Shown here: positions 4,671-50,499 of the stretch, piece by piece
How positions within the stretch are numbered: the first letter of the stretch is position 1
How the letters are laid out: every line of letters starts with the position of its first letter
Source of the DNA: Patescibacteria group bacterium
Lineage (GTDB): Bacteria; Patescibacteriota; Patescibacteriia; UM-FILTER-42-10
Direction: 5' to 3'
Length of the DNA stretch: 64,000 nucleotides
Assembly (NCBI GenBank): GCA_018825385.1
Contig: JAHJEX010000074.1
Coordinates: forward strand, 997-64,996
The notes under the pieces: model-generated
What the model saw: only the letters and a program-made list of their open reading frames with translations
Database searches by the model: none
What the model was told of the DNA's origin: nothing
Position numbers and translations under genes: made by a program

Positions 4671-5806
4671 CATCATCAAGACAACATCCACCAGATTATA
4701 CGTTAATTGCTGTTGTTTTTGTTATTCTGATATTCGGTCTGATTATGCTTTCGTCTGCGAGTTCAGTTGTTGCTTACCAAAAATTCAACGATAGTAATTA
4801 CTTGCTGAAGCATCAACTGTTCTACGGTGTTTCATTGGGTCTCCTTGCTATGTTTATAACATCTCGAATCGCCTATCAAACATGGAAAAAGCTTGCGATA
4901 CCGATGCTAGCAATAACAATATTGGCTCTTTTTATTGTTTTAGTATCTGACGCTGGTCTTACAAGCGGTGGTGCAAGACGTTGGATTGATTTTGGATTCT
5001 TCACGTTTCAGCCGTCAGAATTAACCAAGCTCACTTTTGTCATCTATTTGGCTACGTGGCTTTCAAAAAAAGGGAAAGTTATAAGCAATTTTGCTTATGG
5101 ATTTGTTCCATTTCTTGTGCTTCTGGGCGTAATTACTTTTCTTGTCATGATGCAGCCTGATCTTGGTACGATGACTGTTATAGCGCTTGTGTCTATTGCA
5201 ATTTATTTTATTGCCGGGGGAGGTATTAAACATATTCTATTGATCATTGCCGGAGGAATATCTCTTTTTGCCTTGCTCATAAAAATTGCTCCATACCGTG
5301 CTGCTCGGTTTTCCGTTTTTCTTAATCCTGAACTTGATCCTCAGGGAATTGGGTATCATGTTAACCAAGCTTTACTCGCAATTGGATCGGGAGGAATTTT
5401 GGGACTAGGGTTGGGCCGGTCAAGGCAAAAATACAATTTTCTACCTGAAGTAACAGGTGACTCGATTTTTGCAGTTATCGCAGAGGAACTGGGTTTCATT
5501 ATTTCTTTTGGACTTATAATTTTATTTTTCTTATTAATGATCCGCGGCTTCAAGATTGCTAGAAGCGCACCTGACACATTTGGAAAACTGGTTGCAGCAG
5601 GTATAACTTGTTGGTTTACAATTCAAGCTGTTGTTAATATTGGTTCAATGGTTTCCTTATTACCTCTAACAGGGATACCATTACCATTAGTTAGCTACGG
5701 AAGTTCAGCAATAATAATATCCCTGGCAGCATTGGGTATACTTATTAATATTTCTAGATATACACTGACAACGGAGCCTTCAGCAACGAGAACGCGAAGA
5801 AAATAA
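4667..5806 (+). CDS. ftsW: SEDS-family peptidoglycan glycosyltransferase FtsW/RodA.
   Basis: About 10 TM helices. SEDS motifs (PSELTKL, GSGGILGLGLG, LPEVTGDSIFAVIAEELG). ATGA overlap with the murD stop. Confidence 0.85.
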   Translation: MTSSRQHPPDYTLIAVVFVILIFGLIMLSSASSVVAYQKFNDSNYLLKHQLFYGVSLGLLAMFITSRIAYQTWKKLAIPMLAITILALFIVLVSDAGLTSGGARRWIDFGFFTFQPSELTKLTFVIYLATWLSKKGKVISNFAYGFVPFLVLLGVITFLVMMQPDLGTMTVIALVSIAIYFIAGGGIKHILLIIAGGISLFALLIKIAPYRAARFSVFLNPELDPQGIGYHVNQALLAIGSGGILGLGLGRSRQKYNFLPEVTGDSIFAVIAEELGFIISFGLIILFFLLMIRGFKIARSAPDTFGKLVAAGITCWFTIQAVVNIGSMVSLLPLTGIPLPLVSYGSSAIIISLAALGILINISRYTLTTEPSATRTRRK

Positions 5807-27828: not shown

Positions 27829-29592
27829 ATGACAGAACTTGAATTAAGAAATAAATTTTTAGAATACTTTCGAAAAAAGAAGCATGCAATAATTGCACCT
27901 GCTTCTTTGATTCCTGAAAATGATTCCTCTGTTTTGTTCACGACCGCCGGCATGCATCCTTTGGTGCCGTATTTATTGGGTGAGATACATCCTGAAGGGA
28001 AGCGTTTGGCGAATTTCCAGAAATGCATAAGAACTGGTGATATTGATGAAGTCGGTGATGATTGGCACCTTACTTTTTTTGAAATGCTTGGCAATTGGTC
28101 ACTGGGCGACTATTTCAAAAGTGAGTCTATTAAGTGGAGTTATGAATTCTTAACTAAGGAACTTGGAATTCCAAATGAAAAACTGGCTATTACAGTGTTT
28201 AAGGGAAACGACGATGCTCCTTTTGATAAGGAAAGTTTTGAGCTATGGAAGGACCAGGGAATTAGTGAAGACAAGATATACATGTATGGGAAAAGTGAAA
28301 ATTGGTGGGGCCCAGCCGGCATTACTGGTCCTTGCGGTCCTGATACGGAAATATTTTACATTACTAACAGAAATCCATGCAGCAAGGATTGCCAGCCAAG
28401 TTGCAACTGCGGAAAGTATAACGAGATCTGGAATAATGTATTTATGGAATACAACAAAATAAGTAATGGTGACTATGAACCCTTATCACAAAAAAATGTT
28501 GATACAGGAATGGGATTAGAAAGGACTGTTGCTATTTTGAATGGGAGGAACTCAGTATATGACATAGACTTATTTAAGCCCGTTTTTCAGAAACTGAGAC
28601 AACTATCTTCTATAACAGATTTAGTGGCAGAGCGCGTAGTTATTGACCATGTTCGATCAGCCTGTTTTTTGCTACTAGAAGATATTGTTCCTTCCAATGT
28701 TGATCAAGGCTATGTATTGAGAAGACTGATTAGACGTGCGATAAGGCAAGCGCGTAAACTTGGTATAAATACTAAGTTTACTCAAGATATTGCAAACGCA
28801 ATCTTCGAATCGCATATTGAATTATACCCCGAAATTAGCAAGAAGAAAGAATTTATTTTGACGGAAATGCAGAATGAAGAGGAAAAATTTGCAAGAACTT
28901 TGCAAAAAGGTTTAAAGGTGTTCGAAAAAGAGTTAGAAATATTTAAAAATTCAAAGAAAAAGGAAGATAAGTTCTCTGGTAAAGCTGCTTTTTACCTGTA
29001 TCAAACATACGGATTCCCAATCGAAATGATTGAGGAAGAGCTTAAGGATAATGACATTGAGCTAAATCGAAAGCAATTTGATACAGAGTCTAAAAATCAT
29101 CAGAAGCTTTCCCGAAATGGTGCGAAAAAAAAATTCGCAGGCGGATTAGCAGACCATTCTGATGAGACAATAAAACTTCATACGGCAACACATTTACTTC
29201 ATCAAGCTCTTCGATTAGTTTTAGGGGAACATGTAATGCAAAAGGGGAGCAATATAACAACTGAGCGTTTGAGGTTTGATTTCACGCATCCTCAAAAGTT
29301 GACTCCCGATGAGATTATCAAAGTTGAGACCCTTGTTAATGAACAGATACAACGAGCTTTGCCAGTAACTGTTACTGAAATTACGGTAGAAGAGGCTAAG
29401 CGGAAAAATGCGATCGGTTTGTTTGAAAAAAAATACGGTACGAAGGTCAAAGTCTATAAGGTAGGAGATTTTAGTATAGAAATATGTGGCGGTCCCCATG
29501 TAAGCACTACAAAAGAGCTAAATAGCTTTAGAATTATAAAAGAACAAGCTGTCTCCGCTGGAATTAGAAGGATTAAAGCAAAAGTGCAGTAA
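27829..29592 (+). CDS. alaS: Alanine--tRNA ligase, short form (catalytic + tRNA-recognition + editing domains, no C-Ala domain).
   Basis: N-terminus FLEYFRKKKHAIIAPASLIPENDSSVLFTTAGMHPLVPYLLGE. Editing-site HTATHLLHQALRLVLGEHV. Only 587 aa. Confidence 0.85.
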   Translation: MTELELRNKFLEYFRKKKHAIIAPASLIPENDSSVLFTTAGMHPLVPYLLGEIHPEGKRLANFQKCIRTGDIDEVGDDWHLTFFEMLGNWSLGDYFKSESIKWSYEFLTKELGIPNEKLAITVFKGNDDAPFDKESFELWKDQGISEDKIYMYGKSENWWGPAGITGPCGPDTEIFYITNRNPCSKDCQPSCNCGKYNEIWNNVFMEYNKISNGDYEPLSQKNVDTGMGLERTVAILNGRNSVYDIDLFKPVFQKLRQLSSITDLVAERVVIDHVRSACFLLLEDIVPSNVDQGYVLRRLIRRAIRQARKLGINTKFTQDIANAIFESHIELYPEISKKKEFILTEMQNEEEKFARTLQKGLKVFEKELEIFKNSKKKEDKFSGKAAFYLYQTYGFPIEMIEEELKDNDIELNRKQFDTESKNHQKLSRNGAKKKFAGGLADHSDETIKLHTATHLLHQALRLVLGEHVMQKGSNITTERLRFDFTHPQKLTPDEIIKVETLVNEQIQRALPVTVTEITVEEAKRKNAIGLFEKKYGTKVKVYKVGDFSIEICGGPHVSTTKELNSFRIIKEQAVSAGIRRIKAKVQ

Positions 29593-29658: not shown

Positions 29659-29776
29659 GAGTCATACTTATGCAAACAGATGAGTTACTGCAGAACAAGG
29701 CAAATAAAATACAAATGTATTAATTCTTGTCCTATATGCAGGGGGCAAAGATTTTATTTTAGGTCTAAAACATAAT

Positions 29777-30055
29777 ATGCCTGAAAACGGTACACAAAAT
29801 ACAGATTCTGCTGAGGACAAAGGAAAGTCAAAAGCTTCAACAAATAAAAAAGGTTTTATTGAAGTTACTGGTGTGGTGGAAGAGCTTCTGCCCAGTACAA
29901 CTTTTAAAGTTAAACTTGAAAACGGCCATGAAATATTGGCTCATTTATCAGGAAAAATGCGCATGCATAGGATAAGAATTCTACCTGGTGACGAGGTAAC
30001 GGTGGAAATAACTCCGTATGACCTGACTAAGGGTAGAATAACTTATAGAAAATAA
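29777..30055 (+). CDS. infA: Translation initiation factor IF-1 (with ~20-aa N-terminal extension).
   Basis: S1-like core [42 protein letters not shown]. Confidence 0.85.
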
Positions 30056-46597: not shown

Positions 46598-46879
46598 ATG
46601 AAGAAGACTTTATATATAATATTATCAACGGTTTTAGGAATCATAGTCAGTTTTTTATTTCACGCAATCATTGAATACATATTTATTAGGTCAACCGAAG
46701 ATAGTGCAATAACTTGGAATAGTAGCTTTGGAATTGGTAGTTGTGCACTACCTGAATGGCTCCAATATTCTTTGCTGGGGATCGGAATTGTTAGTGGTAT
46801 AATAGTTGGTTTTTGCTGGTGGAATATCGTATATATTCAAAAACGTCATTGGCGGAATAAAAAACATAAAGCAGACTGA
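46598..46879 (+). CDS. Small 2-TM membrane protein.
   Basis: 93 aa with two hydrophobic helices. Sits between the hypothetical and the SPFH gene. Confidence 0.4.
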   Translation: MKKTLYIILSTVLGIIVSFLFHAIIEYIFIRSTEDSAITWNSSFGIGSCALPEWLQYSLLGIGIVSGIIVGFCWWNIVYIQKRHWRNKKHKAD

Positions 46880-47704: not shown

Positions 47705-49411
47705 ATGAAAAAGCTTATTACAATTGTAATATTTGTTTGCATAGTCGTGCTGATGCCATCGGTCACATACTCGGTTTATGACAATATAAGCAATTTTGAT
47801 GCGCAAATATTCGTTAATAAAGACTCAAGCATAACAGTCCAGGAAACAATAATATACGATTTTGGTGACGAGAATCGCCATGGCATTTATAGAGACATCC
47901 CAATTCAGTATAAAGCTCGAGGAGGTAATTATAAACTTAGAGTATCAAATACATCAGTAACTGATGAAAACGGAAGCGCATATAATTATGAAATATCATA
48001 TCCCGGAGAATATATTAGGCTAAAAATTGGCGACGCTGACATTTATATCACTGGGGAGCATGAATATGTAATAACATACAGCGTAAAACGGGCTCTCAAC
48101 TATTTTGAGGAGTGGGATGAACTATATTGGAATGTAACAGGAAATGAGTGGCCTGGTCCAATTGATAGTGCTACGGCAACAATATATTTTGAGGATGCTG
48201 TTGCATCAAACGACATAAAGACAGACTGTTTTGCCGGATATTTGGGCTATGATGATAAATGTTTTTCTGAACGAATTGTTGAAGAAACTGATGGAACTCT
48301 TTTGGGTATAGAATTCGTGCACAAAAACCTTTCCGTAAGTGAGGGATTGACAATTGTTGTAGGATTTCCTAAGGGCTTAGTAACTCCACCAACAACTTAT
48401 GAAAAATTAATTGATTATTTTCGTGATAATGGAATTCTTTTTCTACCGATATTCGTATTGGGATTAATGATTTATTTATGGAGAGCAAAAGGCCGAGATC
48501 CCAAAGGTAGAGGAACGGTAGTAGCGCAGTATGAAGCGCCGGATAATCTAACTGCTGCTGAAGTAGGTATAATAATAGATGAAAAAGTACAAAGAAAGGA
48601 TGTATCTGCTCAGATAATTCAATTCGCTGTAAATGGCAACCTAAAAATAGTTAAAGGCGACAAAAAAGATGACTATACGTTTGTAAAACTTACGGATAAA
48701 GGAGTTTTGAAAACAAAGTTTGAAAGAGATTTGTATGAAGGAATATTTGGTAAGGATACCAAGGTAAAACTATCTAAGCTAAAAAATAGCTTCTACAAAG
48801 ATTATCCGAAAGTCACGGATAAACTATATAAAGAAACTGTAGAAAAGGGATATTTTTCAAAAAACCCAAAAAATGTAAGATCATCTTATAACGGCACTGG
48901 AGCGCTATTGTTCATTATTGGTTTCTTTACCGGTTTCCTTGGAGCATTCTACAGCATAGCATTTATTACATCAGGAATAATTGTGATGATTTTCAGTTTA
49001 TTTATGCCTTCAAAAACACTTAAAGGAACTCATGCGCGTGAGCATATATTAGGACTTAAGACCTATCTATCAGTTGCAGAAAAAGATAGGATAAAGTTCC
49101 ATAATGCACCGGAAAAGAATCCTGAACATTTTGACAAACTCCTTCCATATGCAATGGTGCTTGGAGTTGAAAAAGAATGGGCTAATCAGTTTGAGGATAT
49201 ATACAAACAACCGCCATCTTGGTATGAAGGACCAGCAGGATCACATTTTGGGGCATTATATTTAGTAAATAGTTTAAATAGTTTTCAGACGAGTGCCAAT
49301 ACTACGCTCACCTCAAGACCGTCGTCCGCATCAAGTGGAGGAAGTGGTTTTTCCGGTGGCGGTGGTTTTTCTGGCGGTGGATTTGGAGGCGGCGGAGGCG
49401 GTAGCTGGTAA
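47705..49411 (+). CDS. DUF2207-like membrane protein with Gly-rich C-terminal tail.
   Basis: Signal peptide, large N-terminal domain, two C-terminal TM helices, and a tail SGGSGFSGGGGFSGGGFGGGGGGSW typical of DUF2207 proteins. Confidence 0.55.
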   Translation: MKKLITIVIFVCIVVLMPSVTYSVYDNISNFDAQIFVNKDSSITVQETIIYDFGDENRHGIYRDIPIQYKARGGNYKLRVSNTSVTDENGSAYNYEISYPGEYIRLKIGDADIYITGEHEYVITYSVKRALNYFEEWDELYWNVTGNEWPGPIDSATATIYFEDAVASNDIKTDCFAGYLGYDDKCFSERIVEETDGTLLGIEFVHKNLSVSEGLTIVVGFPKGLVTPPTTYEKLIDYFRDNGILFLPIFVLGLMIYLWRAKGRDPKGRGTVVAQYEAPDNLTAAEVGIIIDEKVQRKDVSAQIIQFAVNGNLKIVKGDKKDDYTFVKLTDKGVLKTKFERDLYEGIFGKDTKVKLSKLKNSFYKDYPKVTDKLYKETVEKGYFSKNPKNVRSSYNGTGALLFIIGFFTGFLGAFYSIAFITSGIIVMIFSLFMPSKTLKGTHAREHILGLKTYLSVAEKDRIKFHNAPEKNPEHFDKLLPYAMVLGVEKEWANQFEDIYKQPPSWYEGPAGSHFGALYLVNSLNSFQTSANTTLTSRPSSASSGGSGFSGGGGFSGGGFGGGGGGSW

Positions 49412-49413
49412 AT

Positions 49414-49441
49414 TTGTCAGAATCAATCCTAAAGTTATACT
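49414..49441 (+). promoter_or_regulatory. Sigma70-type promoter TTGTCA-16-TATACT for the microprotein unit.
   Basis: TTGTCA at 49414-49419, a 16-nt spacer, TATACT at 49436-49441. It starts immediately after the DUF2207 stop. Confidence 0.45.
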
Positions 49442-49477
49442 GACCGAGCATTTAAATACTAATCCTACGGAGGTTAT

Positions 49478-49531
49478 ATGACAGACGCATGTCCATCATG
49501 TGGAAACAATCCTTGCACCTGCGGTAGTTAG
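49478..49531 (+). CDS. 17-aa Cys-rich microprotein MTDACPSCGNNPCTCGS (CPxCG-type minimal zinc-finger-like peptide).
   Basis: Strong SD GGAGGT at 49469-49474 about 4 nt before the ATG. Four Cys arranged as CxxC-x4-CxC. Its own promoter lies upstream and a terminator immediately downstream. Too short to appear in the ORF track. Confidence 0.4.
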   Translation: MTDACPSCGNNPCTCGS

Positions 49532-49543
49532 TTTAAGTAAAGA

Positions 49544-49566
49544 CCCCCCAAAAATGGGGGTTTTTA
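49544..49566 (+). terminator. Rho-independent terminator following the microprotein ORF.
   Basis: CCCCC(C) / aaaaat / GGGGG hairpin followed by TTTTT. Confidence 0.6.
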
Positions 49567-49614
49567 CTATACATACAATTGCCAGAAGCAGCAAAATACC
49601 GTAAAATATGGATT

Positions 49615-50499
49615 ATGAAAGAAGATGTTGATCTATCCATATGCATTGTTACTTGGAATTCTGAGAATGATATAGCTGAATGCTTATCATCTATAGAACA
49701 CGCTAAAAAAAATCTCAATATCGAGGTTTTTGTTGCTGATAATGCCTCCTCAGATAACACTGCCAAAATTGTTAGTACTTCATTTCCGGAGATAATTCTT
49801 ATCCAAAATAGTAAGAATTATGGATTTGCTAAAGCAAATAATCAGGCGATCAGACGATCCAGCGGACGCTATGTTTTGCTTTTAAATCCTGACACTAGGG
49901 TCAGAAAATGCACATTCAAAGATGCAATTGACTATATGGAAGTTCGTAGCAAAATTGGGATTGTAGGATGTGCAATTAGTAATCTGGATGGCTCGCGGCA
50001 ATACTCTGTCAGAAAGTTCCCGTCGCTGACATCTCAAATTCTTATCCTTTGTAAGCTACATAACTTTTTCCCTAGCTTACCACCGCTAAAAAAATATTTT
50101 GCTCTTGACTTTGACTACGCAAAAGAACAAAGTGTAGACCAAGTAATGGGAGCGTTTATGTTAATACGTCGCAAATGTTTAGAGCAGGTGGGTTTGCTAG
50201 ACGAAAAATTCTGGATCTGGTTTGAAGATGTTGACTACTGCAAGCGCGCTATTAACCTCAATTGGAAAGTAATGTACACACCGAAATTCGAAATTGCTCA
50301 TAATCAAAGCCAGAGTTTCGCAAAACTATGGGCAGTGCAAGAACAAAGAGTATTTAACAAAAGCTTGCTATACTATATTCGAAAACACCGGGGTAATTTA
50401 TCATACAGGGTTTTGTTAATATTTGTACCGATTAGCATTATTCTTTCTACAATCGTCGGAATATTTGAGCCAAAAACCAGTAAAATAAAAGTTCAATGA
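49615..50499 (+). CDS. Family 2 glycosyltransferase.
   Basis: LSICIVTWNSENDIAECLSSI...VFVADNASSDNT. The start was set to the Met at 49615 (MKEDVDL). Confidence 0.75.
   Translation: MKEDVDLSICIVTWNSENDIAECLSSIEHAKKNLNIEVFVADNASSDNTAKIVSTSFPEIILIQNSKNYGFAKANNQAIRRSSGRYVLLLNPDTRVRKCTFKDAIDYMEVRSKIGIVGCAISNLDGSRQYSVRKFPSLTSQILILCKLHNFFPSLPPLKKYFALDFDYAKEQSVDQVMGAFMLIRRKCLEQVGLLDEKFWIWFEDVDYCKRAINLNWKVMYTPKFEIAHNQSQSFAKLWAVQEQRVFNKSLLYYIRKHRGNLSYRVLLIFVPISIILSTIVGIFEPKTSKIKVQ

Follow-up and report, generated by a model that had tools for sequence, protein, structure and literature searches.

The closest described class of proteins for the gene treated here is that of the haloarchaeal C(P)XCG zinc-finger micro-proteins, with Haloferax volcanii HVO_0758 and HVO_2753 and Halobacterium Brz as examples. 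These proteins comprise approximately 40 to 70 amino acids, carry two C(P)XCG motifs at least 10 residues apart, have no recognisable feature besides these Cys pairs and are predicted or were shown to bind one zinc ion, and their genes are often missed by annotation (PMC11241148, PMC10716476, PMC6562870, PMC2253796). Here, we analysed a gene of 17 codons at positions 49478 to 49531 of a stretch of 64,000 nucleotides from contig JAHJEX010000074.1 of a Patescibacteria group bacterium (the whole stretch is called the window in the following; other loci carry L numbers). An earlier note on this DNA had described the gene as the complete, stand-alone transcription unit of a CPxCG-type, cysteine-rich microprotein. 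In common with the haloarchaeal class, the product is stand-alone, small (<70 amino acids) and built on Cys pairs of the CPxCG knuckle type. However, the haloarchaeal proteins are archaeal and three to four times longer, whereas the peptide of the window is bacterial and has 17 residues. It combines one C-[PQS]-x-C-G with one P-C-x-C-G motif, the two pairs being 4 residues apart, and falls outside the two-motif definition of the haloarchaeal proteins.

The gene is very likely real and translated. We read its product as a stand-alone Cys4 double-knuckle metallopeptide, encoded by an independent 17-residue gene and probably binding zinc, and give this reading a probability of approximately 0.6. 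The evidence for the gene comes from an orthologous unit at the same place in a related genome and from a family of 17 distinct members with coding-type substitutions.

Several other small metal sites invite comparison. SEC-C, the C-terminal zinc domain of SecA (PF02810), is an autonomous site of approximately 20 residues, the first half of which, (N)DPCPCGSG, resembles residues 10 to 17 of the peptide, GN(D/E)PCTCGx. It gave the only Pfam signal on a single padded peptide (12.3 bits against a cut-off of 20.4 bits, E = 0.16), obtained with GGSGGS as padding and with residues 10 to 18 aligned, one pad residue included. However, SEC-C has the pattern C-x-C-x8-C-[CH] in a basic KKYKxC context, whereas the peptide is acidic, follows C-x2-C-x4-C-x-C and has its CPxCG ligands first. 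The retroviral zinc knuckle (PF00098, C-x2-C-x4-H-x4-C), with a zinc-dependent fold of 18 residues, has the C-x2-C-G start and the four-residue spacing in common with the peptide, but its third ligand is His instead of Cys and its last spacing is four residues instead of one. The retroviral knuckle is basic, binds nucleic acids and always stands within a larger protein, and PF00098 gave no match to the peptide in the Pfam scan at E values up to 10.

Metallothioneins, of which the small fungal copper-binding forms have approximately 25 amino acids, resemble the peptide in several respects: the peptide is likewise Cys-rich (24%), with CxC and CxxC pairs, Gly, Ser, Asn and Asp between the cysteines, no aromatic residues and a presumed role in metal buffering. 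However, metallothioneins contain at least 7 Cys in multi-metal thiolate clusters, whereas four Cys correspond to one metal per peptide. The signal of Metallothio_Euk on a concatemer of three peptides (E = 2.8, 8.4 bits against a cut-off of 22) was weaker than that of SEC-C. Rubredoxin places two CxxCG knuckles approximately 30 residues apart around iron, in contrast to the 4 residues between the pairs here, and no rubredoxin match to the peptide was found in Pfam. The peptide does not fit the definition of SEC-C, of CCHC knuckles, metallothioneins or rubredoxins, nor that of attenuator leaders or of precursors of ribosomally synthesized and post-translationally modified peptides (RiPPs).

Neither Pfam nor NCBIfam returned a match at thresholds for the padded peptide or the three-peptide concatemer, PDB sequences gave no match to padded or concatenated queries, and the concatemer returned nothing from a collection of 5.8 billion predicted proteins. 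The family was also not described in the full text of the literature, searched with six nine-residue strings from members and with keywords. The family is therefore new in the sense that it is absent from the catalogues searched; the small Cys4 metal-knuckle kind was already known, and the present example is bacterial and of unprecedentedly small size.

Anatomy and synteny of the unit

The unit is bordered by a DUF2207 membrane protein (47705 to 49411) and a family-2 glycosyltransferase (GT2, ATG at 49615). From the stop of DUF2207 (49411) to the start of GT2 (49615), the gap measures 203 nt rather than the 165 bp given in the earlier note, the other elements of which (promoter, Shine-Dalgarno, 17-codon open reading frame (ORF) and terminator) were all located where it had placed them. 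All features lie on the + strand. The -35-like hexamer TTGTCA (49414 to 49419) and the -10-like hexamer TATACT (49436 to 49441) are separated by a 16-nt spacer, jointly match the consensus at 10 of 12 positions and end 36 nt upstream of the ATG. The Shine-Dalgarno GGAGGT (49469 to 49474) follows, with its GGAGG core ending 4 nt before the start codon. The ORF runs from ATG 49478 to TAG 49529 to 49531 and encodes MTDACPSCGNNPCTCGS. Five codons before the ATG the frame is closed by a stop, and as no other start intervenes, the ORF is exactly 17 codons long. Downstream, an intrinsic terminator (49536 to 49568) consists of the G/C stem CCCCCAAAAATGGGGG (49545 to 49560) and TTTTT (49561 to 49565), and A/U pairing extends the hairpin; the folded 75-nt stretch 3' of the ORF reached -22 kcal/mol.

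Within the window, ATG-started ORFs of 10 to 25 amino acids with at least four Cys occurred four times, with 1.8 ± 1.5 expected when the window was simulated as a first-order Markov sequence. Such window statistics alone leave room for chance. With this unremarkable count, the case rests on the comparison with other genomes, and conservation there decides.

For this comparison, the contigs encoding the five closest homologs of the window DUF2207 protein, whose best named relatives are from Patescibacteria (the candidate phyla radiation, CPR), were used as the synteny set. All compared contigs share the gene order ABC-2 transporter, 246-amino-acid protein, protein of approximately 90 amino acids, DUF2207, GT2, Wzy-like protein and GT2. 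In the closest relative (L003/L004; DUF2207 72% identical), a gap of 201 nt is found at the corresponding place. The L003 gap holds TTGACA-16-TATACT, GGAGGT, a 17-codon ORF encoding MTDPCQTCGNDPCSCGE and a C5/G4-T7 terminator. This ortholog was reached through its DUF2207 neighbour without use of the peptide motif and is the sole member free of the bias of a motif search. Between the two peptides, the four Cys, both Gly and Pro12 are retained; five codons (T2, D3, C8, N10 and G16) differ by synonymous changes only, and six amino acids are changed. A third syntenic ortholog, L158, encodes MTDACSTCGNEPCTCGE and has a matching promoter, 5' untranslated region, Shine-Dalgarno and terminator. Across the window, L003 and L158, the -10 hexamer and the Shine-Dalgarno are invariant, and the -35 hexamer reads TTGACA in both L003 and L158.

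Between the -10 hexamer and the Shine-Dalgarno, the 5' untranslated region contains the near-palindrome GCATTTAAATAC (49448 to 49459), which is invariant in the window, L003 and L158 and thus conserved beyond the diverged synonymous sites of the ORF. The window holds a single exact copy, and CCCTTTAAATAC at 46, the other intergenic match, deviates at two positions. The near-palindrome may have a regulatory function specific to the window clade, as an operator or otherwise.

The promoter of the GT2 cluster, TTGCCA-17-TAAAAT (in the stretch 49579 to 49617 of the window, which also holds the GT2 start codon), is common to all syntenic relatives, including the lineages L005 to L010, which keep it despite the absent ORF. 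The unit thus forms an insert of its own, placed between the end of DUF2207 and the promoter of GT2, and is not required by the GT2 cluster. As the -10 of the GT2 promoter ends only 7 nt upstream of ATG 49615, the mRNA of the GT2 operon is probably leaderless. Taken together, the sequence comparisons support the reading of the small unit as an independently transcribed gene and not as a leader of the glycosyltransferase cluster. The independence proposed by the earlier note holds up in that promoter, Shine-Dalgarno, ORF and terminator are kept together in L003 and L158, and in that the 17 members occur in varied contexts.

At L158:1400-2000 (Ga0257124_1000006), the locus lacks the Band_7 gene, the larger part of DUF2207 and the first GT2, and the 17-codon unit stands intact alongside. 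A short membrane protein of this locus, a homolog of the 93-amino-acid ORF of the window (46598 to 46879), ends in the DUF2207 C-terminal tail GGGGGGSW and looks like a deletion fusion.

The family of 17-codon genes

The family comprises at least 17 distinct members, those found being the window, L003 and 15 more from degenerate DNA scans, with the consensus M-x-[DE]-[PAT]-C-P-x-C-G-N-[DE]-P-C-[TS]-C-G-x. The first scan was anchored on a Shine-Dalgarno, covered one representative genome per species, allowed an N-terminal spacing of 2 to 4 codons and left the C-terminal length free. Among its 17 loci were the stand-alone ORFs of L139 (MLEPCPTCGNDPCTCGS) and L141 (MVDTCPACGKDPCECGD), both exactly 17 codons long although the length had been left free. 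The other loci were mostly collagen-like N-termini from metagenome-assembled genomes (MAGs) of Clostridia or a type I restriction R subunit, and the remainder look like chance matches. The second scan, of metagenome contigs, fixed the architecture by the ATG, the four Cys codons, the GG of the two Gly codons, the CC of Pro12 and a stop-like codon. It returned 20 loci, 17 of which were family members with 13 distinct sequences; of the three off-family loci, L161 and L162 lie within a longer Gly/Trp-rich protein and L167 is an ORF with a run of Cys. The exact 17-codon architecture had zero matches in viral contigs.

All members, L003 included, have the four Cys, the two Gly and Pro12, and the number of Cys is exactly four in 16 members (five in L148). 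The first motif is C-[PQS]-x-C-G, with Pro in 14 of the 17, and the second pair is C-x-C-G in every member. The label CPxCG-type thus describes the first pair of most members through Pro6, but it fits neither L003, which has CQTCG, nor the second pair, which is P-C-x-C-G.

The nine codons left free by the pattern are the informative ones with regards to selection. Their mean pairwise amino-acid identity was 0.38; triplets drawn at random from these loci reached 0.06, and the off-family pattern hits did not exceed 0.03. Nucleotide diversity in these codons was 0.36, 0.29 and 0.61 at codon positions 1, 2 and 3, respectively, and the free third positions of the constrained codons were near saturation as well (0.53). 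The ratio of nonsynonymous to synonymous polymorphism (pN/pS), pooled over all pairs, was 0.28. The codon-position pattern and this ratio indicate a translated sequence under purifying selection and not a conserved RNA. The conservation check with a selection test, which the earlier note had named among the ways to examine the ORF, thus came out in favour of the gene, with orthologs found in other genomes.

The expression signals are shared as well. Of the 17 members, 16 have a terminator, consisting of a G/C-rich hairpin and a T-run, that starts 6 to 25 nt after the stop codon. The stems are unrelated in sequence among members, which implies that the function of the terminator is conserved rather than its sequence. 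Most members have a good sigma-70-like -35/-10 pair that ends 26 to 53 nt upstream of the ATG. About half carry a strong Shine-Dalgarno (window clade, L166, L141, L156), and weaker ones are seen in L139 and L153. Members without a Shine-Dalgarno have an AT-rich, TTAATnATTAA-like element approximately 10 nt upstream of the ATG. This palindrome was counted 3 to 20 nt upstream of the ATG in approximately 8 of the 17 loci, with 0.013 expected per locus. In the form TTAATnATTA(A/T), it was recorded for L148, L151, L152, L153, L156, L159, L160, L163 and L165 as loci without a Shine-Dalgarno (L153 and L156 appear in both lists).

In the same loci, ordinary neighbouring genes such as HU also carry the element, approximately 10 to 12 nt upstream of their start codons. 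It is better read as a generic start-region signal of genomes without a Shine-Dalgarno, and TTAATnATTA(A/T) may be a lineage-specific initiation signal or a -10-like signal. Each small ORF thus carries the start signal of its local genes, which is further evidence for translation. A Fur/Zur-type operator was considered for the element, as it resembles the Fur-family core TAATnATTA, and was rejected since ordinary genes carry it and none of the loci examined holds a homolog of Fur, Zur, PerR or AdcR.

Among the members that can be assigned to a taxon, the family is found mainly in Patescibacteria; L141, L149 and L154, which have a higher GC content, are outside that set. The closest named relatives of the neighbouring HU proteins are from Patescibacteria. 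L139 (CAZQLY010000004.1) is labelled 'uncultured Gammaproteobacteria bacterium'; its HU is 77% identical to HU proteins with named relatives in Patescibacteria, and it shares the arrangement of microprotein and HU with L153 and L156. Because of these HU relatives the label is doubtful, and it is probably wrong.

Predicted metal binding and competing explanations

C-P-x-C-G is the classic knuckle of rubredoxins and zinc ribbons, and N-[DE]-P is a typical tight turn. Autonomous metal sites of comparable size exist in the 18-residue retroviral CCHC zinc knuckle and the SEC-C zinc site of SecA with approximately 22 residues. In the proposed mechanism, the peptide would wrap one metal ion, most likely Zn(II), in a tetrahedral arrangement of four thiolates within 11 residues. 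Two knuckles, CPxCG of the rubredoxin type and P-C-x-C-G, would provide the ligands, with the N-[DE]-P turn linking them. Taken by itself, the binding of a metal through the four Cys appears reasonably probable. The members are acidic and have one basic residue at most. This disfavours nucleic-acid binding; buffering or chaperoning of metal in the cytosol, or binding to proteins as a small module, would be likelier. Any specific physiological role is nevertheless doubtful. The peptide would probably be among the smallest stand-alone metal-binding peptides known.

Several points weigh against the reading as an independent metallopeptide. Among structural Zn sites, CxxC is more typical than a C-x-C pair. 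Homologs of Fur, Zur, PerR and AdcR were found in none of the loci examined, and metal-homeostasis genes are not consistently linked to the ORF, the lone ZIP neighbour (L154) lying beyond a tRNA gene. The distribution is patchy: four syntenic lineages (L005 to L010; DUF2207 64 to 68% identical) lack the unit, with gaps of 82 to 130 nt in its place, and in four other loci the ORF is absent within 1.5 kb of HU. Finally, most members were found by a pattern that demands the Cys, Gly and Pro, to which variants without these residues are invisible.

The same four cysteines could instead serve thiol chemistry, with the peptide acting as a low-molecular-weight thiol, a redox buffer or a disulfide-locked hairpin in organisms of minimal metabolism. 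Four invariant Cys in 17 residues would suit such a function, the strong promoter and terminator fit an abundant small product, and the inconsistent neighbourhood of metal genes points in the same direction. However, Gly after the second and fourth Cys and Pro before or within the pairs are signatures of metal knuckles, unlike redox CxxC motifs, and with no signal sequence the peptide would be expected in the reducing cytoplasm. We therefore regard a thiol-disulfide peptide as unlikely, though it comes before the other alternatives.

A RiPP precursor, or a signalling peptide for export, with post-translationally modified Cys is somewhat less probable still. The small, Cys-rich product with its own transcript recalls precursors such as PqqA, MbnA and the SCIFF type, and a cluster for an ABC-2 exporter lies upstream in the window, but this cluster persists in relatives without the ORF. 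Among the immediate neighbours in the window and 12 loci, neither a radical-SAM enzyme nor a cyclodehydratase, a lanthionine enzyme or another maturase was found; one immediate neighbour, in L149, has a Peptidase_C39-like domain. The neighbours vary, and no RiPP enzyme is conserved across loci. Moreover, 17 residues are too short for a leader and a core, and the 12-residue core of the peptide also occurs inside large proteins.

In a cis-acting leader peptide, stalling at the Cys codons would control the choice between the terminator and read-through into the downstream genes, here the glycosyltransferase cluster. The terminator shortly after a short ORF (6 to 25 nt), the share of Cys codons (4 of 17) and a next gene that, in the window and several loci, has the same orientation would all be expected of such a leader. 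However, the downstream gene is convergent in five loci (L153, L156, L159, L163 and L165), and a separate, conserved promoter serves the GT2 cluster and is retained where the ORF is missing. The conserved positions include Gly, Pro, Asn and Asp/Glu besides the Cys codons, and the downstream genes are unrelated to cysteine metabolism. In the minimum free energy and centroid folds of 49448 to 49570, the terminator stands isolated and no competing antiterminator helix is formed, in line with the earlier note, to which no antiterminator was evident. A leader peptide is thus very improbable. A chance frame within a small RNA, or within a spacer before the terminator of the DUF2207 operon, is scarcely credible: ORFs with at least four Cys are not rarer than chance in the window, the whole 123-nt transcript folds better than shuffled sequences (z = -4.2, for which the terminator accounts for the most part) and an Rfam scan of the window gave zero matches, but 17 distinct sequences retain frame, length, start and stop with third positions near saturation, identity at the unconstrained positions is six times that of random triplets, and the start signals match local gene usage.

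Genomic context and recurrence of the core

The neighbouring genes differ among loci. DUF2207 and GT2 flank the unit in the window clade, while HU is the neighbour in L139, L153, L156 and L159, an OLD-like nuclease in L148 and L151, a PIN-domain protein in L141, a PEBP-family protein in L160 and a cytochrome-b5-like lipoprotein in L163 and L165. DUF1003, EamA, Peptidase_C39_2, HD and LiaF-like domains were also seen among the neighbours scanned with Pfam. HU adjacency was considered as a functional link and discarded, as the four HU loci without an ORF within 1.5 kb, mentioned above, have an HU that is 78 to 82% identical. In L154 (6132 to 6513), the microprotein gene stands between tRNA-Met and tRNA-Asp, and a ZIP zinc transporter gene follows after the second tRNA. 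A link to zinc through this transporter is weakened by the intervening tRNA-Asp gene and by being a single case. Elsewhere in the window, a further short Cys-rich ORF (29680 to 29775) encodes a basic protein of 31 amino acids; the gap of 185 nt in which it lies separates a gene that ends at 29592 from one that starts at 29777.

Unrelated larger proteins also contain the 12-residue core CxxCGxxPCxCG, either inserted or at the N-terminus. Acidic linkers of large phage proteins hold it (viral L024, L030, L040, L048, L059 and L065, among the matches listed), and in L146 two copies lie between Helicase_C and EcoEI_R_C of a type I restriction R subunit. In Clostridia MAGs from rabbit gut (within L131 to L147), the core forms the N-terminus of collagen-repeat proteins (MMIYRRCPSCGNCPCTCG...), and phage proteins of 85 to 92 amino acids (L049, L175 to L179) have it at their N-terminus as well (MAFCPECGENPCKCG...). 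No Pfam model covered the core in the seven module-bearing proteins scanned. The embedded modules have the identical 12-residue core but are part of a larger protein and have other flanking residues; they may be either homologous to the 17-mer or convergent. The recurrence of the core would fit a self-contained mini-fold. A permissive motif scan of viral contigs showed the bare motif to be too common for unanchored use.

Tiny Cys-rich ORFs of 20 to 22 codons with the same core were encountered at L011:1072-1106, L015:3842-3876 and L095 (minus strand, approximately 5188 to 5242). They share the motif M-C-x-x-C-G-C-S-P-C-x-C-G-x-x-K-C-x-K-V and may represent a second, phage-borne microprotein family.

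To our knowledge, the known bacterial ORFs of up to 20 codons are almost all cis-acting leader peptides. A peptide of 17 residues with amino-acid-level conservation, a promoter and a terminator of its own and many different contexts would instead be a true trans-acting microprotein at the extreme lower size limit. This would be relevant to metal or thiol handling in organisms with minimal genomes. With CxxCGxxPCxCG, a compact module is defined that lies outside the Pfam and NCBIfam models in the scans run on the padded peptide, the three-peptide concatemer and seven module-bearing proteins, and the null result in the collection of 5.8 billion proteins illustrates how conserved coding sequence escapes annotation. 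More tentatively, and at somewhat less than even odds, the family may be the smallest ribosomally encoded stand-alone metal-binding family, consisting of a 12-residue Cys4 double knuckle in a five-residue frame. It would then act as a one-metal mini-metallothionein or metallochaperone in the ultra-reduced Patescibacteria, and its mini-fold would be reused as a module of phage and other proteins. If this is true, the family would represent a functional class of bacterial genes far below the length floor of every gene caller.

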